From: Lingula anatina
Lineage: Eukaryota; Animalia; Brachiopoda
Reading direction: 5' to 3'
Assembly (NCBI GenBank): GCA_051362555.1
Contig: CM120645.1
Span: 23,712,934-23,776,933, forward strand
DNA: 64,000 nucleotides
The notes under the pieces were generated by a model. That model saw only the letters and a list, made by a program, of their open reading frames with translations, had not been told where the DNA came from and searched no databases. Shown piece after piece: positions 48-56,455 of the stretch. A program made the position numbers and the translations under genes. Position 1 is the stretch's first letter; each line of letters begins with the position of its first letter.

Positions 48-2047
48 GAACACGACTGTAAGCTCACCCAGGAGATCATAGAGCTCATAGACAGAGAGGC
101 AGATCTTTTGATGAGAGGAGTGAAGGAAAACAACCTGGAGGGACTTAGGAAAAGAATCTCTACGTTATTCCTACAGTACATCAAGACACCGACATTTAAC
201 CCAGAGGCCGCCAGGTTACTCAAGGTACGGGGTCTTTAGATTATTTTGTTAACTTTGTGAAAATGTACAACATCACATCCAGACTCCTGTATACCTTATC
301 TACCGTCAGTTAATCATGATTTGAATGCTTGCATTTTTTTGCATTTGATTTGGTCGTGTCTGTGTCTTTAGTCTGTTTGGAGACAAAAGGTTTACTGTAA
401 ATGCAGATATATTTTCAATTTTTAAACTTATTAAAGGCTTACTTTTGTGTAAGAAAAAGGTGTTTATTTCACCTTCAAATTGGTTGAAAAAAATAGGAAG
501 TCTGGGTGAGGGAGATTTAGCTAATATATACAACAATTAAAATATTTTTATTTCATTGAAAATTTCCTAATTTCTTTATTTGCTGATAAGATTTTTGAAA
601 ATTATTATTTTATCTATCCTTTAAAATCTTCATTTTATATATATTTATCTACAGGTCCCACAGGATCCGTCCACACTGCGCAAGAACATCTACTACTGCC
701 GCAGCTGCAACAGCTATCTTCCGTCCACAGAATTCCAGTTGTCGTCCAACTCTCGGACCGTTGGCAAGTGTCGCAACTGCATGAAGATCGACAACGACGC
801 CCGCGTCCGACAAGATCTCAGCCATTACCGCTTCATGCTCAAGACGCTGCGTCGCTCGGAAGAACAGTTCCAAGATGGCGCCAAGATTGCGTTCTTGTTA
901 CAGGTAAGCTTTGGTCGCAGTGCTAACGTTACAGCTAAAAGAGTATCCAGGGACTTCTACTCTTTACATTTTGTATACACTTTACATTTCATTGGCACTT
1001 CTTTTGGTATTTTAATAATAAAGTGTATTGCTAGCAGCTTTGTTATGCTGTACCTTGCACAAAATCTGAATTCTTTCTTAAAGCGAAAAGTTAAGATGTG
1101 TAAGTGTTCTAGTAGCACTTTATTTTATATAGCTTAGTCATACTTTGATTTAAAACTGGGGTTCATAATAATATTACTGAGTATTCATGCTTGTTTATGT
1201 AGGAATCTTGAACGCAAAAAAAACCCCGACTACGTTCGTACTTAGAAGACCATTGCTCGAGCGAAGTTGGTTGTTGAGTACATCGTTAATCATTTTAAGC
1301 TCCATATTCCCGTGTTATCTTTCTAGGAGAGTGACTTGCGTTACTTGATCGAGAACGTCTGGAACAGCCAGAGCGTCCTCAGTGCCTGGGAGGACCTCTA
1401 CGACCTGGTGCTGTGCCGCTGGGACAAGTTTGAAGAGTGGGCCCCCTGGAACTGCGTCCTCCTGACCAAGGACGAGGCGTCCGCTCATATGAAGCTGGAG
1501 AACCTGGAGGAGGTGGGTGGTTAGAACTTTGACTTCAGATTTTTTTAAAGACGAAGAATTATTTCTGTGGCCAGTACATTGAAATACACGATGTCTGAGG
1601 ATAATATTGTGTATTTTGTTTGAGTTAAGGCAGAAATTAGAGATGGTTTACAATTAAGTGTTACATGAAAAAACTAAATACTGTGATTCTGTAAGTGACT
1701 GATTGTATTTACGATTTTTAAGTGGAGTTACAAGATCTGGAATGTGCTTCATGATAAATTTATTTGCGTTTTTTTTTTATAGAATAAGTCGATCGGTTCT
1801 AATATTTATTATTCTATGACGAAAATATAAATAATAACACATAACATTCTACTTTCATCAGGGTTACGGCCAAGTCTTAATCCACAAGGTTAAGCACAAG
1901 CACACCTTGGCTCGGAACTATTTCTCTCGTCTGCCAGGAATGGCGGAGTACATGCACCAGAAGTCTAAAACAACTCTAACCAACCAAGACCAGTCTTCTC
2001 CGTCCATAGCGGGAAAAGCAGTGCCAAAACAGATGATAAAAGCTTGA
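48..2047 (+). CDS. IQUB: IQ and ubiquitin-like domain-containing protein, last four coding exons (48-224, 655-903, 1327-1512, 1862-2047); 5' part lies outside the window
   Basis: Four phase-0 exons with AG/GT borders join into [64 protein letters not shown]...[13 protein letters not shown]...[29 protein letters not shown]...[20 protein letters not shown]...KA*, recognisable as the IQUB C-terminus; TGA at 2045-2047. Confidence 0.95.
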
Positions 2048-3468
2048 ACTACCAGTCATTTATAATTTTAGAAAGGGACAGTGATGGTGATTTGGGCTTG
2101 TGGATAAAGAATGTTTTCATGGAATTTATTGCCGCAATGTCATGATAAATTATTCCGCACCAATCGGACAAATTATACTACGTCAGAGCCGAAGGAATTT
2201 TTTTAAATCAGAACATGTGCTTAGGCCATTAAAAAACATTACCGGCATATTTTTATAAAACAAGCAAAAACACGTGGATTGATATGGCAAGTTCAACGAT
2301 GCCGATGTGATATTGTCTAGTTCCGTTGGGATCGGGTGTATAATTATATATTTGTGAGAATATTTTGAATACGGTTATTCCAAACTATTTTAAAAATAAG
2401 TTGTGCGATTTGTATATAAATGCTTGTATATAAATTATATTGTATCTGATCTTTGAGTGTTGGTTTTATATATTTTATCGATTTGATACGCGAATAACAG
2501 AAACCGCGACGCCAAAAAAAGGTTTGGACAATTGCAATACTTAGTATTAAAACTCGACTCAATTATGAAAAGAGCATGCCACGCATACCATATAATAAAT
2601 AAATAAATAAAATAAATAAATAAATGAATGAATAAATAAGAGATCCGAGCTTACGTGACAGTTCCTTACCCGCACGTGTCTACTGGGATGACGTTACCAG
2701 CTCATTAACAATCTACAGTGAATTTTGGCAGATGTCATTTTAATGTACCCTGAGTGTCAGAGCAACGTAAAAGCTAACTAGCTTAAATTTACCTTGTGAT
2801 GGAGTCGCTTTTTGCGACATGGGTTATATATGAAATCAAGATCGAGCTGGCAATACCGGAATCTAGAACCTCGGGTATTTTAATGGGGCATACAATAACT
2901 ATCATTGCAATACGTGTTGCCAGGCTTAAATAAAAAGGCAATATTGATATACTAAAAAAAATATTTGGAAGTAGTGTGACATTCTGTTTTTACTATGGAA
3001 TTGTTTGAAGTGAAAATACCACAGAAGTATCACAAAATTTGAAAATCACCAAAATGAAATGTACGTCTCACGTTTCATCCTTTTATCAACCGCAACTGAA
3101 ATGAAAAAAAAAGTAAAATGAAATCAGACATGTCTATAGTTTACATTTCCTGACCGACGATCCCGATATTACATGTAAGGTTCGTGACCAGATAAATCGA
3201 CTTGTAGAACTGCAATTGTTTGTTCGTTTAAAAGGGTAACATTCAATAATCTGACACATTGCTGAGTGTAACTTTAATATAGGTAGCTTGCGCTATTTGT
3301 CTTATTTGATATTTAACAGGGGGTCACCTTGCTGAAACACGATTTTACCTGACATACTGCATGAGTAATTATTCTAATACATATGTAATCATATACTGCA
3401 GGCCTGCCTATATCCCATTTAATGTATGGTAAAACTTACCATTCATGATAAAGATTGGGGGTAGCTAT

Positions 3469-4888
3469 TTACTCCAGCTGAGGGTCAGCCTTTTTCAGTA
3501 TCTGCAATTGATTGCATATTGAACGAATATGAATAGAATTGCCTGGAATACCCTTCACTACAAATGATTATACCCATTTAATTTCGAGTTATTAAACATC
3601 GAAGGCTTTCGGTTTCCTAGTATTCAGATGACAATTCAGCTGGCAAGAAATGACTGATGATTATGAAGAGAAAAAATTATCTGAAACGTCTTTGCATTGA
3701 GATTATTTCTCTAAGTGAGGTACCTTATATCTTAATTCTACTGCAGATGCTTTAAAGAACTGATAAACCTAAACACGTTTTACTAGTCACAATATAATTT
3801 AACTCAAACAAAATTGTTAAAGTATGCATTAAAATAATAATAATAATAATAATAATAATAATTATGATAATGAAAGCATCGTTGTAATCAAACACTACCT
3901 TAACACATTCCTCGAAGCTTAGGAATCCATCATCTGGATAAGAAAACAACCACGTGCACCACTTTGAAAAGTTACCTTAATCAACACAGAACGTAACTGG
4001 CTCCGTTTATGTTAATTTTTGAAATTTAGTCTTAACCCGAAGGAATCAAACACGCTTACCATCGAGATCTAGTGAGAGCATCCTGTTTACATCGGCCGCG
4101 GTCAAAACACCATCGTTATTGAAATCAATTAGTTCCAAGATTGCATAGATCCACTTTGGTTTTAGCACAGAACTGGTCTTCATGTAATGTCTCACAGACT
4201 CCTTTGGCGTGACTTCATCATTATCTGAAAACACCGCAAAAGCGACAGGCATTGTCAATTATATGTTTCTGTCTCGCGTCATTTTATGATATCTATGTTC
4301 GGTTTAGACACTTTTGTATAAAACGATTACATATCATGTTAAGACAACCATATACTACTTTTATGAAATATTTAGCATATTTTATATTGCTTGTAACCGT
4401 CATCAATATTAAATAACCGTATTAAACCTACGATCAGTGTCAGCGGCATTTAAAAGTGCGGCCCATTCCAGTTTGCTGATCATTCCGTCGTTGTCGGAGT
4501 CAACGATATCGCAAAGCAACACCCCTATTTCCTTTGCTGTGAGAGGGGGCTTTTTGGCATCCGTACGACCACAATAACTACAAAAATGTGAAACAGCTCT
4601 GTTGAAAAGTATCTCCGACTACATAATGTGTTATTCATAAAGCATGGAAAGTCAAACGAAAAAAATATGAAACTGACAAAAAACCAATGCAACACGACAA
4701 TTTTGGTGTATGACTGTAGATTGTTGTTTTAAATCACCGACCAAATGTCACAGAGTGTTGGAAACAATTAATTGCAATTGCTGTCACAAGAGTGCTGAAC
4801 GGTGATTAACAATATATACATTATATGCTCACGTGTTTGTTGCCATGGAGGTAAGACACAGGCCCACGATCATCAAGTGGAACATCAT
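3469..4888 (-). CDS. Secreted four-EF-hand protein, copy 1 (144 aa); exons 4833-4888, 4432-4577, 4060-4224, 3899-3933, 3469-3501
   Basis: GT-AG spliced ORF: signal peptide MMFHLMIVGLCLTSMATNT, loops DSDNDGMISKLE, DTDHNDEVTPKE, DFNNDGVLTAAD, DLDDDGFLSFEE, end ILKKADPQLE*. Has a 12-nt in-frame deletion (EECVK vs EECIEECVK in copy 8). Architecture resembles insoluble-matrix-shell-protein-5-like proteins. Confidence 0.9.
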
Positions 4889-5188
4889 ATTGTATTTGCG
4901 GAACTTTTATAGAAATTAGAAATCAGTTCAACACAATAAGGCAAACTAATTATTGCTAAGGATAATAAAAATTGAATGATTTACACATAAATACCAGATT
5001 TATGACTTTTGACAGCATACTTTTAGGAAAAGTAGAACTGGCAAATGTATCATGAACTTCATTTTTCACCTGTTCCTTTTCTTCAAATGGACCTACATTT
5101 TGAGTATCAGTGTAAACAAATGTAAATAACCAAAAAGTAATTGAGCAACTGATATATCATATTGAAATAATTTCATTCCAAAACTTAC

Positions 5189-5328
5189 TTGATATGAATG
5201 TTTACACCAGCGATGTCTATCAGTAGAGATCTCCGACTTAGATGACAAACAGAAGCGCTTCAGGTAGGTTAATTGCGACAGTCACGTCATCAGCAGACAT
5301 ACGGGTACTTCCGAAGTATTCAGTGACG
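5189..5328 (-). promoter_or_regulatory. Putative non-coding exon 1 and core promoter of EF-hand copy 1 (homologous blocks precede the other copies)
   Basis: Conserved GTAAGT donor (acttac 5183-5188 on +); exon-end positions in other copies are 15346, 22446, 27460, 32949/33452, 43640, 49882, 55370. TCAT Inr-like site near 5243, A/T-rich box about 30 nt upstream (TATAAA in copy 3 at 22536-22541), TGACGTGAC at 5281-5289. Confidence 0.6.
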
Positions 5329-8300
5329 TAGTCTATGGGCCAATGTAGACCCCCCTCCCCCCCCTTAGTGATTTTCGTTCACTATGTTTTTCTGATAGCT
5401 TAGGTCCTAAGCTTTGATTTTCCGCTTGTTTGCCATTAAACTGGTGGTGGGTGTGTGTGCTACAGCCGTTGCCATGGTAACATCTGAGATAAAAAATTGA
5501 AATTTCTGAGACCAAAAAAATATTAAATTATTCAAATGTGTTAAGTGAATGGAATTCAAAATCCTTTCAGATGTATAGTTTAAGAGCTGCACTATACTTT
5601 ATGATCCTCAAAATATTCCAAGATGGCTGTAAATTCAAGATGGCGGCCAATTTTTGCTAATTTTTGAGTAATTTCAATTATTTTTCATATTTGAGTTTTT
5701 ATTCAATAATAAAGGAATAAGAATGTGGGATATGTTTTGATGCGCCGGAATAGCATACAACCTCTTCTTGCTACCTACAGTATTTATTTTAGATGAAACC
5801 TTTTGATTTTGTTGTAAAATCCTGAAATCCAAAATGGTGGCCAAAATATAAGTCTGCTGTTCCAACTGGAAAGATGCCAGATTTATCATCAAAGTGTCAT
5901 TCTTTATTACTTTTAATAAACTGAATTCGAGCTTAGAACTTTTTAAAACAATTTGCATTAATTCTGATCACTTTAAGACTTTCAAAATTCAAAATGGCCG
6001 CCAATATGCTTATACACACTGGCTTAAATTGATATAATATATTCTTCCAACAGAATATTAATTTAAATTATCTCCCACCAACTTAGTCCCATTAGTGATT
6101 TTTGTTTACTATTATTTTCTGGTAGGTTAGGCCCTTAGCTTTTATTTTTTGCTTGTTTGCCATTAACCTGGTGGTGGATATGAGTAACAGAGCTGTTGCC
6201 ATGGTAATGTCTGGGGTTGAAAATTGATATTTTTGAGACCAAAAATAAAAATTAAATATTCCAAATGCATTTAAAATCATGGAATTCACAATTATACCAG
6301 ATGTGTAAATTAAGAAGTGTGCTATACTTCACAATTATCAAAATGTCCCAAGATGGCAGCGAATTCAAGATGGCTGCCAATTATTGCTCATTTTTTAATA
6401 ATTTTGGGAATTTTTTTATATTTGAGTTTTTATTTAATTATTAAGAAATTGCAATGTGGCATGTGTTTTGATGTTCCATAATGGTAAAAAGCCTCTGCTG
6501 TCTGCCTAAAGTGCTTGTTGAAGATGTAACCTTTTAATTTTGACGTAAAATCCTGAAATCCAAGGTGGCTGCCACAAAACATGTCTTTTACATACGGCTG
6601 TCCTAACTGGAAAGATGCCACATTAATCATCCCAAATTACATTCTTTATTACTTTTAGGTGTACTGAATATGGACCTAGGACCCTTTTCTATAAATTGTG
6701 TGAATTCAGATTGCATTATGACATTCGAAATTCAAAATGGTCGCCAATTTGCTTACACATGAAATGATATAATACATTATTCCAATACAAAATAAAATTT
6801 AATAAACTCAAGCTAGCTCAGCCCTATTAGCAATTTTTTTTTACTATGATTTTCTGATAGCTTGGGCCTTAAGTTCAAATATTCTGCTTGTTTGCCATGT
6901 AATAGGTGAAAGGTGTGACAGATTCAGCTGTTGCCATAGTAACACAGGGGTTTTAAAATTATAATTTCTGAGACCTTTAAATTGCCATGTATTTCAAATA
7001 TATGATCTCACTGTATTGTAAACTTTTTAAAAAAATTAGACTTGGACCTCAGTTATCAACAAAATTATTTGAAAAAATTATCGTAGTTAAATTGCCAAAA
7101 TGGCAGCCAATCCAAGATGACGATAGATTTATGTTAATTTTCTTCTTATTACTGAAAGTAGCTTTTTGTGAACTTTGAAAGCAGCATTGGAATTGAAATA
7201 ATGTTAGGTTTTTGGATATGCTGATATGAACAGAATTGCATAATTACTGTTTACTGTGTTTGTTACTCCTATATCCTCTTTTTTAAGTGTAATAAAACCT
7301 AAAACCCATGGTGGCCATTACAAAACAGGGTTCATACATATTGCTGTGCTGACCGAATATATATTACATTTTCGTTTCAAAATGCCTCTTGTGCTCTTTC
7401 TGATAAACTGAATTAACCTATTAGGATATTATCTAAATATAAATCATTTCTATTCATTTTCAGCCAAATTATATTTACTTGGCTATTCCAAAATTCACCA
7501 TGGCCACAAATGGCCATGACAGTGCAGGTATGAATTTTGCTGCAATAATTTTAAACAGTGCAACAAACAAATGATTCTAAAATTTGTGCAGTTAATTATA
7601 ATCAAATATGCCCTTTCTACACTGCTTTCACGGAAACGCTTGTCCATATTTAGTTAAATATTTAGGATTAAGGCTTTTTGGAAATGGATGAAATGTCTTG
7701 GCTGTAGTCTTTTTTCATGAAGAATGTTCACTGGAAAGCCAATTAAAATTTGCTTTTACCTCTGAAACTGAGGTTTTGTTACAATCTAAGATGGTGTTCA
7801 TCTATATGAATAAATGGAATAAAACATTTACATGTATATGCCATAACTCAGCTTCAAACTGCTAGAGAGGTAAAATTATATCCACGTTGTGATCCACTAA
7901 CTTCAACTGAATATATAATTTAATTTTTTATAACATTTTACTTAAAATATAATTTATAGAAATGCAAAATCGCCATCTATATTTGCAAACTAGTTGCCTT
8001 TCACTCAAAATCAGACTATTTTGTGTCATTCAACTTGCCCAATAGATGGTAAGAGATGATCAAATAATTTCAGCCATCTACCGCACGATAATTTAAATAC
8101 TTGTAGACCATATTGAGTTATTACAAATGTTCACGATCTTGGCTTCATATTATTCAAATTCAATATATCAAAAGGTAGCAACAAATACAAAAGAATAAAA
8201 GAAGGCAATTTCGGAGAACAATATACAATATTAGAAGTTTAATAGGACAGTAATATATACCAAGGTAAATCACCCAGGATTTGTTGGGGTCATTTTGGAT

Positions 8301-9915
8301 TTCAAGTTTTTTTTTGTTCTTAAAATGATAATTATAGGAATAACAAACACTATAAGCCGTAAGTAAAGACTAAATACCATATGGATATCAAAATACTTAA
8401 CATTTCTCGATCCCATTAAATTTATTAAATTTTCAACGTTAGTTACTTACAGTAGAAACAGGTTTAGAAATCAGCTTAAACCGGCCGCAATTTTGATATT
8501 GCTGCCATCTTGAAAAAAATCACATCATCTTGGATGTTCAAAGAATGTTTTGCCATCATACCACGAATACAGCTGTCTTCTTAAGTTTACATTATTGTTG
8601 AAGTTAATATATTTGAAATGTATGAAATTTTCTTAGTCTCAGAAATGTCAATTTCGAACCCCTGTGTTAGTATGGCAATGGCTGGGTTAATTGAATAGAA
8701 AACAAGCAGAAAATGGGATCTTAGGATGTAAGCGATATATAATAGTAAATAAAAGTCGCTAAAGGGGGATTCAGGTTAATAAAATCAATCTAAGTAACAT
8801 TCTTTTGGAATATAATTTTCAATCAATTTTTTAGCAAGAGTGTATCATATTGACCATAAATATATAGTCCCCTATACTCATTGACAGCCATTTCTTTCAA
8901 ATGCGACAGAATACATTAGTATTTCAACTCAAAAGTATTCTTTCCCATGTCAAATGTGAGTGATTAGCATGTACATGAAACTTTGTGTGATTTCTTAGGT
9001 CAAATGTGAGTGACTTGCATTTATTGAGGGGGTATTATAGGTCTTTTATCTAGTCTAGGTTATTGTTGACCATTTGATCTTTCTTTTTTTAATCATTTTG
9101 CATGACCACACATCTAGTAGTGATCAGCACTATTAAAACATAAGTATTCATCCAAACTTAAGATAAAATTAGGAATATTGCTGTCATATTTTAGTCTACT
9201 GGTTACAAAGATGTAAATTCACGGTCATTGGCGGCCATTTTGAATTTTGAAAGCCATACTGTAATCCAAATTAAGTCAAGTAATTGAAAAGGGTTCTGTT
9301 TTTATATTCAGTGCACCAAAAGTAATGAAGAACTTAATTTGGGATGATAAATCTGTCATATTTCCAGACAGGACAGCTACATGTAAAAGACTTGTTTTGT
9401 GGCAGCCATGTTGGATTTCAGGATTTTTCATCTCAATAAAAAGATTGCACCTTAAACAAACACTACAGGCAGAAAGTAGAGATTCCATGCTACACTGGTG
9501 CATCAAAATATCCCAGATATTGCAATTATTTAATAATTAAATAAGAATTAAAAAATTAAAAATTATCCAAATTTCTGAAAAAACAGCAAAAATTGGCCGC
9601 CATCTTGAATTTGCCGCCATCTTGGAAAATTTTGTTCATCGTTAGGTATAGTGCACATCTTAGACTACATGTCTAGAACGATTTTGAATTCTATTTAGTT
9701 TATGTATTTGAAATATTTTAGATTTTGTTGGGCTCAGAAATGTCAATTTTTAACCCGTGTGTTACCATGGCAACGGCTGTAGCACCCACACCCACCACCA
9801 GTTTTATGGCAAACAAGCAGAAAATAAAAGCTAAGGACCTAAGCTATCAGAAAAACATAGTGAACAAAAATCACTAAGGGGGGGGGGAGGGTTTCGGTAT
9901 TTGGCCCACGGACTA
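5329..9915. mobile_element. Non-autonomous Academ-like DNA transposon (4587 bp) with about 680-bp TIRs and internal ~730-bp repeats
   Basis: Termini TAGTCTATGGGCCAA...TTGGCCCACGGACTA; 3-bp TSD ACG (5326-5328, 9916-9918); empty site tcagtgacgggt near 15480 and 55501. TAG..CTA termini with a 3-4 bp TSD are characteristic of Academ. No transposase ORF. Confidence 0.8.
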
Positions 9916-10886: not shown

Positions 10887-12132
10887 AGATACCTGAATTT
10901 AGTAAATTTAAGTTTAAAAAGTGTTACGTGACATAAAAATCGGTTAGAAATTAGAGATATTTTCGAATTAAGTGTTACATGGAAATATTTCTAATTTTGC
11001 GGTAGGGAATGTGATGTTGGTTTGGGCTTGTGGATAAAGAAAGTTTTCATTGAATATATTGTCGGGGTGTCATGATAAATTATTCCGCACCAATCGGACA
11101 AATTAACCTACGTTAGAGCCATCAAAATGTGTTACAAAAACATTACCGGCATATCTTAATAAAACAAAACAAAAACACGTGGATTGATATGGCAGAAACG
11201 ATGCCAATGTGATATTGCCTAAACGGTTATGCCAAACAAATTTAAAATAAGTTGTGCGATTTGTATATAAATGCTTGTAAATAATTTATTATTTTACCTT
11301 GTCTTTGATCGTGATTTTTATGTATTTTGATTTGACGCGAGAGTACTGGTATAATGGTAACAGATACCGCCACACCAAAGAAGGTTGGGTCAATTGTAAT
11401 ACTTAGTATTAACAATCGACACAAACATAAAAAGAGCATGCCACAAGTCCAAAAAATAAGAGAGACTCGAGCTTACGTGACAGATCCATATCCGCACGTC
11501 TCTACTGGGGCGACGTTACCAGCTCATTAACAATCTACAGTGAATTTTGGCAGATGTCATTTTAACGGGGCATATAATTGCTATCATTGCAATACATGTT
11601 GCCAGGTAATATAAAAAGGCAATATTGATATACTAAAAAAATCATTTGGAAGTAGTGTGATATTCAATTTTACTATGACATTCTTTAATGTCAAATTACC
11701 ACAGTAGTATCACACAAAATTTCAAAATCACCGAATAAAATATTTTCAAATTCTTCAACCTTGGAACAAGGCTTTTTACCCAATCGGAACTGAAATGGAA
11801 AAAATATACGAAATCAAACATGTCTATAGTTTATCCATTTCCGGACCATCCCGATATTATATGTAGAGTTCATGACCAGATAAATCGACTTGCAGAACTC
11901 CTTTTTTTCGTTTAAAAGGTTATTATGCAATAATCTTCTGATAAACTGCCAAGTGTAATAGGTATCTTTCACTATTTACCATACTGGATATTTAACTGAG
12001 AAACAATTTTACCTGACAAACCGCGTGAGTAATTATTCTAATACATATGTAAGCATATATTGCATGCCTGCCTATATTCCATGTATTGTATGGTAAAACT
12101 TACCATTTATGATAAATATTGTGGGTACCTTT

Positions 12133-13711: not shown

Positions 13712-13815
13712 TTTATCACTTTTTGTCATCATACTTATAGGAAAAGTAGAACTCGCGAATATATCAAAAACGTCATTTTTCACTTGTCCGTTTTCTTCAA
13801 ATTGAGCTATATGTA

Positions 13816-15273
13816 TCTAGTTTCTAGTTTCTAGTTTCGTTTTTCAAAAACGATTCTGGCAACCAGAAACTAGTGTCGTTTTTCAAAAACGATTCTGAGA
13901 GAAGCCAGAATCGTTTTGCAAAGAAAAAGAGGAGTGGACAGAGAGAAAGGCAACCGGCGTGCTACCGCAACCAGGTAACCCTCACCGCGGAAGCCGGGCA
14001 ATGTGTAACGAACTCTCCTCGCCGTGTGCTGAGACATAGACGCCCGCTGATAAGCGTCTAAGGCGCACAAGTAGCCTTCACTGCGGAAGCCGGGCAGGGT
14101 GTTTAGGTTGGTGGGAGAAGGCGGGGTTGAGGGTTAGGTTGGGTTAGATGCCCAAAAATCAGTGTCGTTTTTTGAAAAACGATTCTGGCAACCTGTACGC
14201 CGTAGGCAATAAGCGGTGACCGTCTCGGTCTCAGCGCAAGTAGAGGAGAGACTGTAACAACCTTCTCGGTTTTCGCGGTGAGGGTTACACAGTCATGGTA
14301 CACGCTAATCACGGGTTGCCTCTCCCTCCGTCCACTCCTGTTTCTCTCTGCAAATACGACTCTGGCTTCTCAGAATCGTTTTTCGAAAAACGACACTGGT
14401 TTCTGGTTGCCAGAATCGTGTTTCAAAAAACGACACTGGTTTTTGGGCATCAGAATCGTTTTTGAAAAATAATAAATAAAATAAAAAATTATACTTTAAA
14501 CTACTTAGGGAGATCGGGGGAGGGGGGGGAGCTTTTCCCCCTCATCATCCTCATCACCTCCTCCCCCACCAAACAACCCCACCTAAACACCATTCCCGGT
14601 TCCGCGGTGATGGCTACCTGTACGTCGTAGGAGTTAATCGACGATCGTCTCAGTCTCAGCACACGGCGAGGAGAGGCTTCCACGTTGAGGGTTACCTGGT
14701 CGCAGTAGACGCTAATCACGGGTTGCCTCTCCCTCCGTCCACTCCTGTTTTTCCCTACAAAACTATTCTGGCTTCTCTCTGAATCGTTTTTCAAAAAACG
14801 ACACTGGTTTCTAAGCATCAGAATCGTATTTTAAAAATTCAATAAATTAAAAATTATACCTCAAACTAAAAAGGGAGGCCCCGGGGGCCCTTCCCCCTCC
14901 TCACCCTCACCCTCTCCCTTATTCCCCTAAAGCCCATTCTCGGCTTCCGCTGTGCAGGCGGCCTGTGACTGGTAGAGGCGGTCAACTCAGCCTCAGCGCA
15001 CAGCGAGGAGAGACCGTAACATTCTCTGCAAAACTAATTCTGGCTTCTCAAATTCGTTTTTGAAAAACGACACTAATTTCTCGATGCCAGAATCGTTTTT
15101 GAAAAACGAAACTGGTTTCTAGTTGCCATCTAGAATCGTTTTTGAAAAACGACACTAGTTTCTGGATGCCAGAAGCGTTTTTGAAAAACGACACTAGTTT
15201 CTGGTTGCCAGGTTCGTTCTTGAAAAACGAAACTGGAATCTAGAAATCAGACACCAACTTCAGCGCTCCTGTA
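13816..15273. mobile_element. Foldback-like repetitive insertion in intron 1 of copy 2
   Basis: Absent from the homologous intron of copies 1 and 8. Built of ~34-bp units (gaatcgtttttgaaaaacgacactagtttctggttgcca) and a longer module present once in one orientation (about 13840-14100) and about three times inverted. Confidence 0.7.
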
Positions 15274-28801: not shown

Positions 28802-29087
28802 TAGTTTCCTGAATTTAGTAATTTAGTAAATTTAAATTTAAAAAAGTGTCAGGTGACATAAAACTCTGTTAAGAATCGGAGATGGTTTAGAATTAAGTGT
28901 TACATGGAAATAATTCTAATGTTGCGGTTTTGGAAGTGTCTGAAGTGAATTTTCATGTGGAGTTACAGGAACAGAAATGCACTTCATTTATCAACTTATT
29001 TTCGTTTGATAAAAAAATAAGTTAATAACTTTGAAAGATTTATCCTATGAAAAAAGAAATAATCACACAACATTTCACTTTTTTTAG

Positions 29088-29273
29088 GGTTACGGTCAAG
29101 TCTTAATCCACAAGATAAAGCACAAGCACACCTGGGCTCGGAACTATTTCTCTCGTCTGCCGGGAATGGCGGAGTACATGCACCAGAAGTCTAAAACAAC
29201 TCCAGCCAATCAGGACTTCTCGTCTCCGTCCATAGCGGGAAAAGCAGTGCCAAAACAGATGATAAAAGCTTAA
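29088..29273 (+). other. Duplicate of the IQUB terminal coding exon (intact frame, acceptor and stop)
   Basis: 186 nt with 14 differences from 1862-2047 by my count; preceded by cactttttttag; reads [36 protein letters not shown]...QMIKA*. Confidence 0.9.
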
Positions 29274-30271
29274 ACTACCAGTCATTTATTATTTCAGTAT
29301 GGGGAATGGTATGTTGGTTTGGGCTTGTGGATAAAGAAAGTTTTTCATTGAACTTATTGTTGGAGTGTCATAATAAATTATTCCGCAGCAATCGGACAAA
29401 TTATACTACGTTAGAACCATCAAAATATGTTACAAATACTTTACGGGCATATTTTTTATAAAACAAACAAAAACACGTGGGTTGTTATGGCAAGTTCAAC
29501 GATGCCCATGTGATATTATCTAGTTCCGTTGGGATCGGGTGTATAATATATATAAATGAGAATATTTTGAATACGGTTATGCCAAGCGATTTGCAAAAAT
29601 AAGTTGTGCGATTTGTATATAAATTCTTGTAAATAAATAATATTGTATCTGATCTTTGAGTATTGGTTTTATATTTTGATTTGATACGCGAGTATAAAAA
29701 GTAACAGAAACCGCAACGCCAAAAAAGGTTGGGACAATTACTAGCGTACTATCATTGCAATACGTGTTGCCAGGTAATATAAAAAGACAATATTGAAATA
29801 CTAAAAATTCGTTTGGAACTAGTGTGACATTTTATTTGCTTTATGGCATATTTTGAAGTGAAAATACCACAGAAGTATCACACAAAATTTTAAAATCACC
29901 AAAATGAAATGTCTTTCACATGTTTCATCCTTTAACCAAAGCCAACTGAAATGGAAAAAAGTAAATGAAATCAGACATGTCTATATAGTTTATATTTCCC
30001 GATCGACGATCCCAATATTACTGCAGTTTTTCTCTCTCAAAAGGTTAACATTCAATAATCTTCTGACATATTGCTAAGTGTTACTTTATTACAGGTAGTT
30101 TGCACTATTTCTCTAAATGGATATTTAAGAGGGGGTCACCTAGCTTAGACACGATTTCACCGCATGAGTAATTATTCTAATACATATGCAATCATATATT
30201 GCAGGCCTGCCTATATCCCATGTATTGTATAGTAAAACTTACCATTTATGATAAAGATTGGGGGTAGCTTT

Positions 30272-31988
30272 TTACTCCAGCTTGGGGTCAAACTCTTTCA
30301 AAATCTGCAATTGATTGAATATTGTATGCGCAACATCAAATACGAATAGATTTTATGGTAAGAAATGACTGATGGTTATTAAGAGAAAAATTATCTGATT
30401 TTTTTCATTCAGACGTTTCTAACCTTTTTGAAAGTGAGGTTCGTAATTCCTACTGCAGGTATCTTCAAGAACCGATAAGCACATTTTACTAATCGCGGTG
30501 TTCAATATAAATTTTTCTAAAACAAAAAATTGTTATAATGTGCAGAGTAATGAAAGCATCGTTATAATCAAATTTACCTTTGCACATGCTTCAATACATT
30601 CCTCCTTGCTTACGATCCCATCACCTGAATTAGAAAACAATCACTTTGTCACGTTACTTTTGCAACCCAGAGTTTGTGCAGCATAAGGCATCAACTCTGT
30701 TTCAGAAAAATAGGAATTTAAGATTAGCTCTTCATTTGAAAGAATATAAAGCACACTAACCATCGGTATCTAGCGTGTCTAAAAGTTCTACATCGACCGT
30801 AGTCAAAACACCATCGTCATTGAAATCATCCAGTTCAAAGAATGCACGGATCCACTTTGGTTTTAGACCATAATCAGCTTGAATTAAAAACCTCATATAT
30901 TCGCCTAGCGTGACTTCATCATTATCTGGAAACAAAACGAATATATTTATATATACGAATATATATAATTTTATGATATGTGTACGGGTATACTGCATAG
31001 GATATGTCTGCATTCAAAACCGCGGAATAACAAATATCGGCATGGCTGGCCCACCTGAATGCTTGTTATTTAATACGTAGATCTATTAGTGTGTTGGTGT
31101 GAATTCGGCCTTTTATTCGGAACAAAATGGACAGTTCTGCCGAGAGCATGCTTTCTTTTTATCAAAATGACTATGGACCCTTTCAAAAGTAACATTTTGT
31201 CAATTAAGTTATTTGCATTATTAAAATGCAATTGTGTGGTTTATTTTCTGTCCACCTTTGACAAAATATTAATAAAACAAGAATAAAATTTTTACATTCC
31301 CACTGACATTTCAAATAATGACATGGTACCAGAAAAATTCAAGGTATTGTTCAACTTATGAGCATCTGCGTATGTTGTAATTTGTTAACAGCTTTTTTCA
31401 ACGCGGTGAACGTGGTATTTTTGAATGTAGAAAATTACGCATCAATTCCCTTGCATTATAAAAGACTTATATGATAAACTGGAATGTATCCATTCCATGT
31501 TTCTAATTCCAGCTTATGCTGAAGTAAATGTTCCGGATAAGTAATGATTGGACTTACGGTTAATATCTATAATGGCCAATGTAGCCCCCCATTCCAGTTT
31601 AGTGAAGATACCATCGTTATTGGTGTCCGTGGCATTGCAGATGAACTCTCCAAGCTCCCACGCCGTCAGCTGTGGCTTTGTGTCATTCACAGGAGCACAA
31701 TAACTAAAATAATGTCAATTAAAATCCAGATAATCTTTATGACAGTATTTGCAATTATTGTGTTATGTTCAGAGATGTGAATGGGAAGCCACAAGAAGTA
31801 TTCTCAAAAAGTATCAGCAGAAATAGTTTATGAGTTTTAATTAATCATACGCTGTTATAAGCTATTAATATATAATAGATTCACCCTCATTATTAGTTGT
31901 TAAAAGTTAATTGATTATTAAGTTATCCTGAGTTAATGATCAAAGTCCTAAAAGAGTTAAAAACGGATTCAAGCGAAGCCCAGACCGA

Positions 31989-32034
<46 letters not shown>

Positions 32035-32215
32035 AGGGAGAGAGAAAGAGAGAGAGAGAGAGAGGGAGAGAGAGAGAGAAAGAGAGAGAAAAAGAAAGAG
32101 AAAGAGAGAGGGAGGGAGAAGTGGAGGTTTAAGCATGATCACTAGTAAGGCCTACTTACATTTTTGTCACCACGGAGACAACAGACAAGATCACTGTTAT
32201 CACGTGGAACTTCAT
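30272..32215 (-). CDS. Secreted four-EF-hand protein, copy 5 (148 aa); exons 32160-32215, 31558-31703, 30761-30925, 30578-30624, 30272-30304
   Basis: MKFHVITVILSVVSVVTKI...CNATDTNNDGIFTKLE...DINHNDEVTLGE...DFNDDGVLTTVD...DTDGDGIVSKEECIEACAKILKEFDPKLE*. Confidence 0.9.
31992..32120. repeat. (GA)n / purine-rich microsatellite in the intron after the signal-peptide exon
   Basis: Homologous GA tracts of variable length at about 13445, 21455, 26621, 38141, 49237, 57490 and 61804. Confidence 0.9.
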
Positions 32216-34738: not shown

Positions 34739-35561
34739 CTACAAATCGCATATTTTCCTAAACAGAAGGTGGGCCAGTGTCATTCCTGTATGGCCTTCAT
34801 ATATTCTTGGATCTCCTCCTATTGGACAAAGAAAATGTGAACTCCGGTCACAGCTTGTCACTTTCATCGGATTGACAATATAAAAACCATCAATGATTTC
34901 CACTCCATATTTTACCAGGCTCTCCCTGATGATTTCGTTGACCGCTGCCACCATGTAATCATTCGCATTTCTGGCCAAAATCCTAGGCAGAATATTGACA
35001 TATATTAGATGAATTTTTGCAGTGTTGGGATTTTTCCGAACTCTGCCCAGGAGGTGGACAAAACGACCAAAATCTTGTTTTATAAATTTGTAGGCACCCT
35101 TAAGTTCTATATCATGTATACCTAAATCCATTACAACTACATCATCGCTTGTAGCAGGCCTTTTGTGAAATCTGGACGAGAGTGAACGTATTGCTTTCAG
35201 CCAGTCGGGAGTCCACGGAGTCCACTTAAATATATAATTGCTCAGACCTATAAGCTCCATTCGGTCCGGTACAGAGTGCTTGGGATATATGCTAGGAGTA
35301 ATGTGGTCTGTATAAGGAGGAATATGATGATATTTCGACAACAGTTGATTCAAGTTATTACTAAGATATCTGAGATGTGAATCTCCGAGGATTCTGAAAG
35401 TGGTTTTCCTAGTGTAACATTTGCAAAGGTCTGCCTTAGTCACGAACTCGAAAATACACCCGCTTTTAGTTCCCCATTTCCAGTCTCCTCGAATATCCCA
35501 CCAACGCCCATTCATGTATTCCTCAATGTTTGTCTTATTACAATTTTTACCTTGTGTTATT
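34739..35561 (-). pseudogene. 5'-truncated NXPE/PC-esterase (SGNH-type) gene copy
   Basis: Near-identical to the C-terminal part of 44875-46272 (GDSHLRY, DLGIHD, CDRSSHFLC). Homology stops at about 35561, where a Helentron-type repeat starts; the membrane anchor and N-terminal domain are missing. Confidence 0.85.
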
Positions 35562-35676
35562 ATCCCCGCACTTTTGGGACAAAAGTCGGGGATCATGTTA
35601 TCCCGCCCGTCCGTGCGTCTGTGCGTCCGTGCGTCTGTGTGTTAGTAATTTCCGCTATCTCCTCCTAGACTATTGC
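35558..35676 (+). mobile_element. 5' end of a non-autonomous Helentron-type (HINE/DINE-1/pearl-like) element
   Basis: ttattATCCCCG-cacttttg-ggac-aaaagt-CGGGGAT hairpin followed by a (GTCC/GTCT/GTGC)n microsatellite, the typical HINE 5' structure; lies at the NXPE truncation breakpoint. Confidence 0.7.
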
Positions 35677-36379
35677 ATATGAGCATATTTTGAATACGGT
35701 TATGCCAAGCGATTTGCAAAAATAAGTTGTGCGATTTGTATATAAATGCTTGTAAATAAATAATATTGTATCTGATCTTTGAGTGTTGGTTTTATACATT
35801 TTGATTTGATACGCGGGTGTAAAAGTAACAGAAACCGCGACGCCGATAAAGGTTGGGACAATTACTCTCATTGCAATTCGTGTTGCCAGGTAATATAAAA
35901 AGGCAATATTGAAATACTAAAAAAATCATTCTATTTGCTTTATGGCATATTTTGAAGTGAAAATACCACAATAGTATCACACAAAATTTTAAAATCATCA
36001 AAATGAAATGTCTTTCACATGTTTCATCCTTTAACCAACGCCAACTGAAATGGAAAAAAGTAAACGAAATCAGACATGTCTATATAGTTTACATTTCCCA
36101 ACCGACGATGCCAATATTACTGCAGTTTTTCTCTCTCAAAAGGTTAACATTCAATAATCTTCTGACATGTTGCTAAGTATAACTTTATTTAAGGTCACTT
36201 GCACTATTTGTCTTAATGGGTATTTAACAAGGGATCGCCTTGCTGAGATTCGATTTTACCTGACATACGGCATGAGTACTTACTCTAATATATATGTAAG
36301 CATATCTTGCATGTCTGCCTATATCCCATGTATTGTATGGTAAAACTTACCATTTAACATAAAGATTGAGAGTAGCTTT

Positions 36380-44874: not shown

Positions 44875-46352
44875 CTACAAATCGCATATCTTCCTAAACA
44901 GAAGGTGGGCCAGTATCATTCCTGTATGGCCTTCATATATTCTTGGATCTCCTCCTATTGGACAAAGAAAATGTGAACTCCGGTCACAGCTTGTCACTTT
45001 CATCGGATTGACAATATAAAAACCATCAATGATTTCCACTCCATATTTTACCAGGCTCTCCCTGATGATTTCGTTGACCGCTGCCACCATGTAATCATTC
45101 GCATTTTTGGCCAAAACCCTCGGCAGAATATTGACATATATTAGATGGAATTTTGCAGTGTTGGGATTTTTCCGAACTCTGCCCAGGAGGTCGACAAAAC
45201 GACCAAAATCTTGTTTTATAAATTCGTAGGCACCCTTAAGTTCTATATCATGTATGCCTAAATCCATTACAACTACATCATCGCTTGTAGCAGGCCTTTT
45301 GTGAAATCTGGACGAGAGTGAACGGATTGCTTTCAGCCAGTCGGGAGTCCACGGAGTCCATTTAAATATATAATTGCTCAGACCTATAAGCTCCTTTCGG
45401 TCCGGTACAGAGTGCTTGGGATATATGCTAGGAGTAATGTGGTCTGTATAAGGAGGAATATGATGATATTTCGACAACAATTGATTCAAGTAATTACTAA
45501 GATATCTGAGATGTGAATCTCCGAGGATTGTGAAAGTGGTTTTCCTATTGTAACATTTCCAAAGGTCTGCCTCAGTCACGAACTCGAAAATACACCCGCT
45601 TTTAGTTCCCCATTTCCAGTCTCCTCGAATATTCCACCAGCGTCCATTCATGTATTCCTCAATGTTTGTCTTATTACAATTTTTACCTTCTGTTATTGCG
45701 TTCTGTGAACCGGATTTTTCGTGGGAAGCATAATCAAAGGAATGGATCTTTCTGTGGATTCTACAGGGGTTATTTTGTTTTGATCCAGCATCGTGGTGTC
45801 TGAATGCATCAAAATCCGTGTAGTCTAAGTATATCGTACCCTGTATACTAGAATGAACATCACAATATCCGAGGTAGGTTCCATTAAAGAAATCTCTCAC
45901 AGGGCACACCATGGACAACGTGGCATTTTTCGTCGAGTCCCCTTTTCTTTCTTCTATAATGATGTACATATTATGAGAGTTATACATCACCACGTTGACA
46001 TTGTACGTGTAATTCGCACTCTTGTTTGTGAAGCAATGTTTACTTTCAGCATCAGGGTTAAGACTTGACCAAGCACGTTCTAGTTGTTCCTTCTCTGGAA
46101 TACCATTTCTAACCCAGCCGCGTCCACCCAAAAGACCATTTTCTCGATATTCAATAATCATTCCATGTTTGAATTGACCCACATCCAGTTCCCTGGTTTT
46201 CCTTGAAGGCGGGACCCTCTGCAATAAGTTCTGGATAGTAATACTTCTGTTGGGAGATTCCGACCAAATCAATGAAATATATATATTAAAATGCTAACGA
46301 TCGCAAGACCCACACCGCGAAATGTACGTCGAGTCAAAGATTCCTTTCCCAT
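44875..46352 (-). CDS. NXPE / PC-esterase (SGNH hydrolase fold) type II membrane protein, intronless; 2-bp frameshift near 46277-46286
   Basis: 465-aa ORF with CPVRDFFNGTYLGYC, GRW, LGDSHLR, DLGIHD and CDRSSH motifs. Real start ATG at 46352 (MGKESLTRRTFRGVGLAIVSILIY.., signal anchor) is out of frame because of (AT)5 versus (AT)4 in the paralogue at 58979-58986. Confidence 0.8.
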
Positions 46353-49245: not shown

Positions 49246-49279
<34 letters not shown>

Positions 49280-50837: not shown

Positions 50838-51323
50838 TGTCACAAGTTTATATATGAGGTTGCGTATGTATGGTTGTGTTAGTGCAGAGTAGTGTGTTCG
50901 TGCCTTTTCGTTTGTGTTCGTGCGTCTCCGTTTCTTTATATAACACGCCCCTCTTCCTTACGCGGTGCATTCATTTCTCGTTTCTGCCCCGTCAACTTAC
51001 AGGTGAGATAGACTTGATTGGTTTGATTTTCATTTTCTTTGTGTTAAGATTTTGTATTCCTTTAAGTAATTTTGTTTGATATTTTCAGTGCTTGTCATTT
51101 CTTTTCATCCTTATTTGGTTTAGAAGTTTAGTTTAATCACAGTAACAAGTATCTTTAGTTCATGAATGTTGTTCACGTAAATTTTGCTATGTTAGTTCAG
51201 TTCTGCATTAAGTCCATTTTATTTATTTGTAAAGTATTAATTAGACATTCGTTTCTCGTTTCTGCCACGTCAACGTACAGAGTAAACTCGGGTTCTTTAT
51301 AAAGTACAGTGAAAGCTGTTACA
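50838..51323. mobile_element. Solo LTR (486 bp), probably Gypsy-type
   Basis: TGTCAC...GTTACA termini; 4-bp TSD ctga/ctaa (one mismatch); empty site gcatcctaattac near 28285; AGTAAA near the 3' end. Confidence 0.7.
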
Positions 51324-51568
51324 CTAATTAGTGGACTCCTCTGTGTAAGGAATACGATTCCTCCACTGGATATTCCATGCTCTTCCTTATAGTAGTATGT
51401 AACTGCTTTCCAACTTCGGTTTTGGCCCAAGCTTCAGGTTTTGTAGTAAAAGCTCTCTACTCAAGCTAACTGAAAGGCTTTTATTTGAAGAGCGCTCTCC
51501 AGGTTGCTTTCTTCCCAGGTTTGAGCTGTTCTGTGTGTCAAATCTTGAGAAGTATAGGGGTTTAGGAT

Positions 51569-51791
51569 CATTTAACGTTCACCTACGCTTCGCAATCTAT
51601 TCTATAACATTTGATGTATTTTTTTTTAGACTTCTAATGTTGTTTTGTAGCGAATGTAAATGTTTTTGGGAAGTCCTTCAGAATGTCCTAGAACAGATTT
51701 AGAACATTTTTATTAAAAGAGAAAAACATTATGTTCTAGGACAGATTGAGAACCGCAAGTGAGCGTTAAATTAGACAAATTTTCGAAGGGG
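51569..51791. mobile_element. MITE, left-truncated copy of the 28549-28801 element
   Basis: Same internal sequence and right TIR at the homologous position of the unit. Confidence 0.7.
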
Positions 51792-52080
51792 AGATTCCTG
51801 AATTTAGTAATTTAGGAAATTTAAATTTTAAAAAGTGTCACGTGATATGATATTCTGTTAAGAATCGGAGATGGTTTAGAATTAAGTGTTACATGGAAAT
51901 AATTCTAATGTTGCGGTTTTGGAAGTGTCTGAAGTGAATTTTCATGTGGAGTTACAAGAACAGAAATGCACTTCATTTATCAACTTATTTTTGTTTTATG
52001 AAAAAATAAGTTAATAACTTTGAAAGATTTATCCTATGGAAAAAAAAAAGAAATAATCACACAACATTTCACTTTTTTAG

Positions 52081-52266
52081 GGTAACAGTCAAGTCTTAAT
52101 CCACAAGATAAAACACAAGCACACCTTGGCTCGGAACTATTTCTCTCGTCTGCCAGGAATGACGGAGTACATGCACCAGAAGTCGAAAACAGCTCTAGCC
52201 AATCAGGACCACTCGTCTCCGTGCATAGCGGGAAAAGCAGTTCCAAAACAGATGATAAAAGCTTGA
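52081..52266 (+). other. Duplicate of the IQUB terminal coding exon (intact frame, acceptor and stop)
   Basis: 186 nt with 16 differences from 1862-2047 by my count; acceptor cacttttttag; [34 protein letters not shown]...QMIKA*. Confidence 0.9.
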
Positions 52267-52805
52267 ACTACAAATCATTTATTATTTCAGTAGGGGGAAT
52301 GGTTTGTTGGTTTGGGCTTATGGATAAAGAATGTTTTCATTGAACTTATTGTGGGAGTGTCACAATAAATTATTCCGCACCAATCGGACAAATTATACTA
52401 CGTTAGAGCTATCAAAATATGTTACAAATACATTACCGGCATATTTTTATGAAACAAACAAAAACACGGGGATTGATATGGCAAGTTCAACGATGCCCAT
52501 GCGATATTATCTAGTTCCGTTGGGATCGGGTATATAATTATATATAAATGAGAATATTTTGAATACAGTTATGCTAAACGATTTGCAAAAATAAATTGTG
52601 CGATTTGTATATAAATACTTGTAAGCAAATTGTATTGTATCTGATCTTTGAGTGTTGGTTTTATATATTTTGATTTGATACGCCAGTATAAAAGTAACAG
52701 AAACCGCGACGCCAAAAAAGGTTAGGACAATTGCAATACTTAGTATTAAACATCGACTCAGTTATTAAAAGAGCATACCACGTGCCCCCCGCCCCCCCAA
52801 AAAAG

Positions 52806-52837
<32 letters not shown>

Positions 52838-53543
52838 ATAATAATAAATAAATAAATAAATAAATATAAAAGAAGCTCGAGCTTACGTAAGAGTATCATA
52901 GGCGCACGTGTCTAATGGGGCGACGTTACCAGCTCATTAACAATCTACAGTGGATTTGGGCAGATGTCATTTTAACGGGACATATAATTACCATCCTTAC
53001 AATACATGCTGCCAAGCAATATAAAAAGGCAATATCGAAATACTGAAAAATAATTTGGAAGTAGTGTGATATTCTGTTTTTACTATGACATTCTTTGAAA
53101 TGAAAACATCACAGTGCTATCACGCAAAATTTTAAAATCACCACATGTTTCATCCTTTACCCAACCGCAACTGAAATGGAAAAAAAGTAAACGAAATCAA
53201 ACATGTCTATAGTTTATATTTCCCGACCTACGATCCCGATATTACACAAGGTTCATGACCATGCAGATAAATCGACTTGCAGAACTGCAATTGTTTTTTC
53301 GTTTTAAATGTTATTATTCAATAATCTGACACATTACTGAGTGTAACTTTAATATAGGTAGCTTGCGCTATTTGTCTTATTGGTTATTTAACATGGGGTC
53401 ACCCAGCTGAAACATAATTTTACCTGACATACCGCAGTAGTAATTATTCTAATACATATGTAAGCATATATTGCAGGCCTACCTATATCCCATTTAATGT
53501 ATGGTAAAACTTACCATTCATGATAAAGATTGGGGGTAGCTAT

Positions 53544-53952
53544 TTACTCCAGCTGAGGGTCGGCCTTTTTCAATATCTGCAATTGATTGCATATTGTACG
53601 AATATGAATAGAATTTCCTGGAATACCCTTCACTACAAATGATTATACCCATTTAATTACGAGTTATTCATCATCGAAGACGTTCGGCGTCCTAGCATTC
53701 AGATGACACTTCAGCTGGCAAAAAATGACTGATGATTATTAGGAGAAAAAATTATCTGAAATTTCTTCTAAAATGTTTTTTTTTACATTGAGATTATTTC
53801 TTTAAGTGAGGTATATCTTATATCTTATTCCTGCATTGTACTGCAGATGCTTTAAAGAACTGATAAGCCTAAACACGTTTTACTAGTCGCAATATGAACT
53901 AACTCAAATAAAATTGTTAAAGTATGCGTAATAATAAATATAATAATAATAA

Positions 53953-53984
<32 letters not shown>

Positions 53985-55058
53985 AGAAGAATGAAAGCAT
54001 CATTATAATCGAACACTACCTTTACACATTCCTCAATACATTCCTCGATGCTTAGGAATTCATCATCTGGATAAAAAAACATTTACGTACATCACTTTGT
54101 GCCGTTCCCTGAATCAACACGGAACATAATTGGCTCCGTTTAAGTATAAATAATTTTTGAAATTTAATCTTAACTCAAAGGAATAAAATATGCTTACCAT
54201 CGATATCTATTGAGAGCATCCTGTCTATATCGGCCGCGGTCAAAACACCATCGTTATTGAAATCAAATAGTTTGACGATCGCATGGATCCACTTTGGTTT
54301 TAGCACAGAACTAGTTTTCATGAAATATCTCTCATATTCACTTGGCGTGACTTCATCATTATCTGAAAACACCGAAAAAGCGACAGGCATTGTCAATTAT
54401 ACGTTTCTGTCTCGCGTCATTTTATGATCTGTATACTTGGATGTACTTTTTAGTATATTAGACGGTACAATGATGTTAAGACAACCATAAACTACTTTTT
54501 ATGAAATATTTAGCATATTTTATGTTGCTTTCAACCGTCAGCAACATTAGGTAACCGTAGTAAACCTACGATCGGTGTCAGCGGCATTTAAAAATGCAGC
54601 CCATTCCAATTTGCCGATCACTCCGTCGTTGTCGAAGTCGACGATATCGCAAAACAACACCCCTATTTCCTTTGCAGTGAGAGGTGGCTTTTTGGCATCC
54701 GTACGACCACAATAACTGCAACAATGTAAAACAGCTCTGTTGAAAAGTATCACTGATTGCGTAATGTGTTATTCATAAAGCATGGAAAGTCAAAAGAAAA
54801 AATATGAAACTGACAAAAACCAATGCAACACGACAATTTTTGTGTATGACTGCTGGTTGACGTTTTAAATCGCCGACTAAATGTCATAGAGTGTTGGAAA
54901 CAATTAATTGCATTTGCTTTCACAAGTGTACTGAACAATGATTAACAATATATATATACAGTATATTAATATATATATATATATATATATACATATGCTC
55001 ACGTGTTTGTCGCCATGGAGATAAGACACAGGCCCACGATCATCAAGTGGAACATCAT
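53544..55058 (-). CDS. Secreted four-EF-hand protein, copy 8 (148 aa); exons 55003-55058, 54570-54715, 54198-54362, 54020-54066, 53544-53576
   Basis: MMFHLMIVGLCLISMATNT...DFDNDGVIGKLE...DTDHNDEVTPSE...DFNNDGVLTAAD...DIDDDEFLSIEECIEECVKILKKADPQLE*; closest to copy 1. Confidence 0.9.
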
Positions 55059-56269
55059 TTTGTATTTGTGGAACTTTTATAGAAATTAGAAATCAGCTCA
55101 ACACAATAAGGCAAACAAATCATTGCTAAGGATGATAAAAATTGAATGATTTACACACACACACACACACGGAGAGAGATTTATCACTTTTTGTAATCAT
55201 ATTTTTAGGAAAAGTAGAACTGGCAAATATATCATGAATTTCATTTTTCATTTCCCCGTTTTCTTCGAATGGACCTATATTTTGAAAACAGTGTAAACAA
55301 ATGTAATTAGAAAAAAAAAAAGTAATTGAGCAACTGATATCATATAGAAAAAACCATTTTAAAACTTACTTGATATGATTGTTTACACCTGCAATGTCTA
55401 TCAGCAGAGATCTCCTATTATAATGACAAACAGAAGCGCTTCAGGTAGGTTAATTGCGACAGACACGTCATCAGCAGACATACGGGTACTTCCAAAGTAT
55501 TCAGTGACGGGTGAAATCAAATCAGAACCTCTTCAACAGCTCTCCTTTGCAAAATTTGTCAGGCAGACAAGAGTGTCCGATTTGGCAGAGGTAGGTCAGT
55601 TCAGATTAAACGCGACTTTTTTATATCCATATATTTGTTTAAATCATACAAAAAGGGGGTCAAAATATTAATGAGAAATTGTGGAAACCATCGGTAAGGT
55701 TTCGTCAGGAAATTATAAATGTTTGCCCCGACAGCAGCTACCGGCATCACTTTTACATGCTAAGAAATACCATGAAGACAAAGGATGATAAATAAAGGAC
55801 AAATCAGAAACAAACAAAATGCAGTAGTTTCACATACCGGTATTTTATATTTTTGTCACAATAACCTTCTAAATGTTACAGGAAACAGAGGAAAGGTACA
55901 TTGTATATACCTACCAACAATACACGTTTTTCTCTTATCATTTTGATATAGTTTCAAGGATGAGAACTTCATATACTCATATTGTAAAATTAAATTTAAA
56001 AGCTAGTTTCATAAGGTTGTAGCAAAAATGGTGTATTTTGTCACACGTTTCGATCAACAAATATAATATGTTCGTGTTTTCGCATCCATATCATACCCGT
56101 ATCTTACCCCAGTAGCATTCTACTAGTACGTATTCGCAATGAATCAATTTACCGACTATGGATCCAAAAACATCTTGGGACTGGTTATTCATAATAAGGA
56201 ATGAATCAGGAGTGGAGAGAAAAGCCGCACAATGTCTTCTAATAATCACACAACATTTCACTTATTTAG

Positions 56270-56455
56270 GGATACAGTCAAGTCTTTATCCACAAGGTTA
56301 AGCACAAGCACACCTTGGCTCGGAACTACTTCTCTCGTCTGCCAGGAATGGCGGAGTACATGCACCAGAAGTCTAAAACAACTCTAACCAACCAAGACCA
56401 GTCTTCTCCGTCCATAGCGGGAAAAGCAGTACCAAAACAGATGATAAAAGCTTAA
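56270..56455 (+). other. Duplicate of the IQUB terminal coding exon (intact frame, acceptor and stop)
   Basis: 186 nt with 7 differences from 1862-2047 by my count; acceptor cacttatttag; [31 protein letters not shown]...QMIKA*. Confidence 0.9.

Follow-up and report, generated by a model that had tools for sequence, protein, structure and literature searches.

Three copies of the IQUB last exon in an EF-hand gene array of Lingula anatina are probably passengers of gene duplication

A 64-kb window of Lingula anatina DNA (64,000 nucleotides of contig CM120645.1, numbered here from its first letter) opens with the final exons of the IQUB gene on the + strand and continues into an array of minus-strand genes for small secreted EF-hand proteins, in which three further copies of the IQUB last exon begin at 29088, 52081 and 56270. 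We conclude that these copies are likely non-functional passengers of the EF-hand gene duplications, and that sequence exchange with native IQUB likely refreshed at least the copy at 56270. Passenger status is likely because the copies stand in 3' flanking sequence that was duplicated along with EF-hand genes lying tail to tail, and because the RNA that can be assigned to a locus is native. The native IQUB locus comprises the following features:

1327..1512, + strand: IQUB penultimate coding exon, with a phase-0 donor at 1512; reads link it to the upstream exon and to 1862
1862..2047, + strand: last coding exon of native IQUB, with 61 codons and a TGA stop (junction reads, 20 homologues, PDB 9fqr_Ij and 8j07_c2)
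2048..2940, + strand: native IQUB 3' untranslated region (UTR), covered by reads to at least 2260 and further on drawn from homologous flank, its end placed from motifs

By C-terminal homology, the native last exon belongs to IQUB: a search with 1862-2047 returned 20 matches at E<=1e-3, the named ones being IQUB/PF25805 and two being hypothetical proteins, the two PDB chains are solved IQUB structures, and the exon encodes the conserved C-terminal motif GY...HK.KHKH.LA.NYFS. AATAAA motifs of the native 3' UTR lie at 2594-2631 and at 2929. The IQUB protein belongs to radial spoke 1, where it is placed in the base and stalk (PMC10774353, in excerpt).

A search limited to the 64-kb window, followed by alignment, bore out the initial annotation in that each of the three copies has 186 nt and is open, without an indel and in frame with the 1512 donor, a T-rich TAG acceptor and the stop at codon 62 being kept. 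They differ from native 1862-2047 at 14/186 (29088), 16/186 (52081) and 7/186 (56270) sites and from one another at 14-18 of the 186, for an overall likeness of 90-96%. The same annotation called them antisense duplicates, which is correct with respect to the EF-hand genes only, since all three lie on the + strand, sense to IQUB; and the residue changes that it gave (V>I, L>W, Q>F/H, S>C) are present, while Y2N, G3S, L6F, A28T, T38A, L39P and T40A had been missed. The changes are distributed as follows:

29088..29273, + strand: exon copy with V10I, L16W, L39P, T40A and Q44F; stop TAA
52081..52266, + strand: exon copy with Y2N, G3S, V10I, A28T, T38A, T40A, Q44H and S48C; stop TGA
56270..56455, + strand: exon copy with G3S and L6F; stop TAA

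The surroundings of the copies point to their origin. IQUB and the first EF-hand gene are arranged tail to tail, with about 1.4 kb between their ends, and the duplicated unit spans from the EF-hand gene to native position ~1640, thereby including the IQUB 3' UTR, the last exon and about 220 nt of intron. IQUB-derived sequence was found in six duplicated flanks, of which three keep the exon:

10946..11565, + strand: duplicated flank with acceptor and whole exon deleted (native 1672-2057 missing in the BLAST view)
28879..29739, + strand: duplicated flank with copy 29088-29273, behind the EF-hand gene 30275-32215
35680..35863, + strand: duplicated flank cut down to native 2355-2533, without an exon copy (sequence comparison)
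51868..52975, + strand: duplicated flank with copy 52081-52266, behind the EF-hand gene starting at 55058
56240..57094, + strand: duplicated flank with copy 56270-56455, adjoining an EF-hand fragment
63070..63170, + strand: duplicated flank from native 2645 onward, without an exon copy (sequence comparison)

The loss of the exon from the unit near 11000, already recognized in the initial annotation, is a deletion of about 370-385 bp; the flanks at 35680 and 63070 lack the exon as well. Copy 56270 shares only about 30 nt of intron with the native locus, and the EF-hand gene beside it is a fragment with a signal exon at 57596, no EF-hand exons having been found there. Splicing from 1512 to 29088, 52081 and 56270 would span four, seven and eight opposing EF-hand genes, respectively.

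Transcript evidence was drawn from raw-read RNA runs carrying the species label, tissue of origin unspecified, of which seven of nine were mapped (X6 and X9 left out, X7 mapped twice), with 6-26% of each read. The references were 1290-2260 at 85% likeness, which is loose enough to admit reads from any copy, and 51850-56750 at 88%, so that 29088 was covered only indirectly; variant letters were listed from at least 3 reads. On 1290-2260 we observed 67 reads in X1, X3, X4 and X7, in a single direction throughout, including 9 junction reads across the 1512-1862 joint that were found in all four runs, and the spliced IQUB RNA continues through the native exon into the native 3' UTR. No copy-private letter was listed among these 67 reads on the native exon, at the floor of 3 reads. 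In X4, 14 of 16 reads matched the window at 99% or better and 16 of 16 at 95% or better, and because of the latter no X4 read is 29088- or 52081-like. X1 and X3 carry another native allele with six exon differences, five of them synonymous.

On 51850-56750, none of the 99 reads (X7, X8, X5 and X2) reached 99% likeness, and at the sites diagnostic for 56270 all reads had the native letter (56276, 14/14; 56287, 18/18; 56431, 26/26; 56457, 24/24; 56647, 10/10), which sets a 95% upper bound of about 11% on the use of copy 56270 (26 reads). UTR reads of X2, X5 and X8 contain a native-only segment that is missing from all three copies, and although AATAAA motifs are present downstream of the copies, no read in this comparison could be assigned to any copy UTR. 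X8 reads run in both directions, and this run may be unstranded. Two sets of reads were considered as candidates for copy origin and rejected: a junction read of X7 that has T at 1870 plus three further differences and resembled 56270 at first, since both X7 reads are native at 56276 and 56287; and the X1 and X3 reads, which lack copy-private letters and carry 1906T, 1963A and 1996C, found in no copy, X2, a run of the same study, having the native-only UTR segment. Splicing from 1512 to exons 27-54 kb away, as initially proposed, is thus unsupported: the assignable reads are without copy-private letters, and the 9 junction reads fit 1862. Use of the distal copies as alternative last exons is not supported.

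The substitution patterns are in keeping with the transcript evidence. The ratio of nonsynonymous to synonymous substitution rates (dN/dS) is 0.13-0.26 between native and copies and 0.60 between 29088 and 52081. The observation that the intron flank is more diverged than the exon, made in the initial annotation, holds against the native locus (20.7% versus 7.5%) and is reversed between 29088 and 52081, where the intron flank differs by 1.9%, the exon by 7.5% and the downstream flank by 7.2%. Private substitutions of 29088 and 52081 are as dense in the exon (12/372) as in the flank (33/888; p=0.74), whereas native-private substitutions number 1/186 in the exon versus 22/444 in the flank (p=0.004, partly an effect of the tract in 56270 described below). 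Copy-private changes unseen in native reads comprise 10 nonsynonymous to 5 synonymous, compared with 1:7 among native alleles (Fisher p=0.027, hand tally), and the 10:5 ratio is compatible with neutrality (p=0.26-0.43). In every copy, residues invariant in 20/20 homologues are altered (L16W in 29088, Y2N and G3S in 52081, G3S in 56270). Small as the counts are, these comparisons do not indicate purifying selection on the copies' own lineage; the low exon distance between native and copies arises, as judged from the sequences, on the native side, and the apparent conservation of the exon reflects constraint on the native lineage together with the native-type tract that 56270 carries. An absence of junction reads together with neutral divergence of exon and flank and a dN/dS near 1, named in the initial annotation as what would speak against distal splicing, is largely what we found.

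The tract in question is the following:

56290..56530, + strand: native-type tract within copy 56270, corresponding to native ~1880-2124 (ends approximate; site patterns)

When the native locus and the three copies are aligned, the affinity of 56270 changes along the sequence: 10 sites in 1832-1870 join it to the other copies, 16 of 18 informative sites within 1880-2124 join it to native, and beyond native 2124 most sites join it to the copies once more (runs test for a mosaic, p=3e-5). The mosaic is seen in non-coding sequence alone (9:2 versus 4:24, Fisher p=1.4e-4, with boundaries picked after inspection). A short tract whose genealogy is unlike that of its flanks indicates gene conversion, which is the likely origin of these ~240 bp of 56270. 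In addition, native reads also show the exon letters 9T, 60C, 105G and 118G and the TAA stop of the copies. At 2064-2090, the UTR of the X1 type is similar to 29088 and 52081, and that of the window to 56270. Interlocus conversion is expected to leave variants that are shared between paralogous positions (PMC4467073, in excerpt). The copies are known from a single haplotype, and the five shared letters could also reflect ancestral polymorphism or a species complex; a cryptic species may be present among animals that bear the name L. anatina (PMC8146825, in excerpt), so some of the "alleles" may be between-population differences. Gene conversion had been put forward initially as the process that keeps the copies open, and this finds support in the tract of 56270 and in the letters shared with native alleles.

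These observations can be accommodated by a sequence of four steps: (i) one founding duplication with a breakpoint near 1640 would have given rise to the three copies, a single event being suggested because they share 10 letters around the acceptor and the lack of two native UTR segments; (ii) unequal crossing-over would later have amplified the unit, with loss of the exon from the other three flanks; (iii) a conversion tract of about 240 bp, putatively derived from a native allele, may have made most of 56270 native-like; and (iv) IQUB RNA is probably cleaved and terminated at the native AATAAA sites (2594-2631 or 2929), so that the polymerase would seldom cross 27-54 kb and 4-8 opposing genes.

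Several findings weigh against the copies being mere passengers. Under neutrality, the chance of finding all three free of indels and new stops, with AG and stop kept, is about 0.033, a rough estimate that ignores the picking of the copies for being intact (the no-indel part alone gives 0.093). When the six changes common to 29088 and 52081 are added, the copy-private ratio becomes 12:9, a mild synonymous excess (p=0.04-0.12), and the L6F change of 56270 gives Phe, as in 20/20 homologues. A single X8 read, about 70 bases long and located in 52014-52177, could not be assigned to a locus, which leaves at most 1/99 on the 52081 exon; the RNA depth amounts to tens of reads, and 28 variant rows of the 51850-56750 comparison lie outside the set that was used.

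A wider proposal, which we hold to be improbable, is that 56270 (or 52081) serves as a distal last exon on rare occasions or specifically in testis, reached by read-through splicing over 50 kb of opposite-strand EF-hand genes, and that the copies trade sequence both ways with the working exon, feeding variants (the TAA stop, 105G, the 2064-2090 UTR type) into a radial-spoke gene. It is likewise unlikely, and slightly more doubtful in our judgment, that at least one copy is a true alternative terminal exon, used sparingly or in some tissue outside the sampling, for example testis, with the EF-hand genes nested in a long last intron and variant IQUB C termini as the result. The shared strand, phase and acceptor, the downstream AATAAA motifs of the copies themselves, their joint intactness (p ~0.03), the ortholog residue restored by L6F and the unassigned X8 read at 52081 would all fit such an exon, and C-terminal swaps are enriched in human tandem-exon events (77/236; PMC9741552, in excerpt); but the 56270 letter appears in 0 of 14-26 reads per diagnostic site and the 52081 exon has at most 1 of 99, private changes look neutral while invariant residues are altered, and the exon is missing from 3 of the 6 flanks.

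We give still less credence to the idea that the copies were kept as non-coding DNA or RNA elements of the EF-hand genes, as a poly(A)/termination region or an antisense 3' UTR. A minus-strand AATAAA does lie about 12 nt behind the stop in all three (29285, 52278, 56467), and none is there in the window's native locus. However, no RNA of the opposite direction was seen over the exon in four runs at 85% likeness, a weak test since the 55058 gene is barely read in four runs, the private substitution density is no lower in the exon than in the flank, and the gene beside 56270 is a fragment. Least credible is that the assembly created the copies, or the native-type tract of 56270, as artefacts, either by leaving haplotypes uncollapsed or by polishing with reads mapped to the wrong place: the exons differ by only 1-3 times as much as native alleles do (X1, 6/186) and the copies are read from the assembly, but each copy has rearranged surroundings of its own, with indels and 7-11% divergence in the flank, none has the IQUB upstream exons, and the tract of 56270 departs at several sites from the native allele of the window, 60C and TAA being real alleles in the reads.

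Partial gene duplication can leave a fragment of a neighbouring gene, and HYDIN2 is reportedly a partial duplicate of a ciliary gene that became expressed. The likeness here is a breakpoint inside a ciliary gene, part of which was copied; in contrast to HYDIN2, only the last exon and UTR were copied, without a promoter, and no expression was seen. Interlocus gene conversion between segmental duplicates (PMC4467073) resembles the present case in its tandem cluster and its short mosaic tract, and perhaps in the identical letters at paralogous sites, whereas here a functional exon is paired with fragments of itself that lie in the adjacent gene array of an invertebrate. Tandem exon duplication with alternative homologous 3' exons, as in TPM1, lev-11 and Tm1 (PMC9741552), shares downstream homologues of a terminal exon with the same strand, phase, acceptor and stop. 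Such exons account for 77 of 236 human tandem-exon events and are mostly ancient (PMC9741552). The Lingula copies differ in three respects: (i) no assignable transcript uses them; (ii) they are near allele-level divergence, not ancient, and their private changes look neutral; and (iii) whole opposite-strand genes lie between them, the copies having arisen as the flank of another gene's duplication. Their sequences place them, in our view, likely in the class of partial co-duplication with interlocus conversion.

The native gene shows nothing unusual relative to known IQUB except for Leu at exon residue 6 (1877-1879), which is present in 18/18 reads where 20/20 homologues have Phe. Its 3' UTR at 2048-2124 occurs in at least three strongly different types across runs, a variation far above that of the exon; over 45 nt, X1 and the window are separated by about 11 changes. 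A literature search on IQUB last-exon isoforms and on Lingula IQUB found no paper, supplements being outside the search.

The EF-hand array consists of nine minus-strand genes, plus fragments, that fill 3470-61917 and encode a signal peptide and about 148 amino acids, with starts at 4888, 13563, 21671, 26736, 32215, 38280, 49360, 55058 and 61917; the fragments are at 57596 and 63070-64000. The gene nearest IQUB is as follows:

3470..4888, - strand: first secreted EF-hand gene, with its signal-peptide exon at 4888 and EF-hand exons (tblastn with P0021; last-exon position read from the sequence)

Its EF-hand Pfam matches are weak and below the cutoff. A homologue search with one EF-hand exon gave no match, and a second exon gave a single match, 98% identical to an uncharacterised 148-aa Lingula anatina protein. 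EF-hand domains are frequent in lophotrochozoan shell proteomes (PMC13425148, in excerpt), so a shell role for the array proteins can be offered as a lead only. At 55370, three X8 reads join an upstream non-coding exon to the signal-peptide exon of another family member; some array-type EF-hand gene is expressed, while the 55058 gene has next to no exon reads in four runs. Within the array, two long, intronless-looking open reading frames (ORFs) lie on the minus strand at 34739-35641 (300 codons) and 44875-46293 (472 codons), measured stop to stop, with weak GDSL/SGNH-like Pfam matches below the cutoff and a related fragment at 58762-59125; the former is a 5'-truncated duplicate of the latter. 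A repeat of about 650 bp occurs in three copies (5351-6975, 9227-9891), one of them inverted, the copies being about 74-77% alike, and may be an old transposon of the non-autonomous kind. Short repeats, both direct and inverted, are clustered at 13813-15254, in the upstream intron of the second EF-hand unit.

To conclude, if distal splicing were true, the locus would show alternative terminal exons at an early stage of their birth, and the new intron would enclose an entire gene array on the opposite strand. As they stand, the copies are unremarkable debris left by duplication on the border of a gene array, and they provide a cautionary case in which an open frame, an intact splice site and exon divergence below that of the flank occur without selection on the copies, these signs of conservation being misleading because the parent exon is constrained and because of gene conversion.

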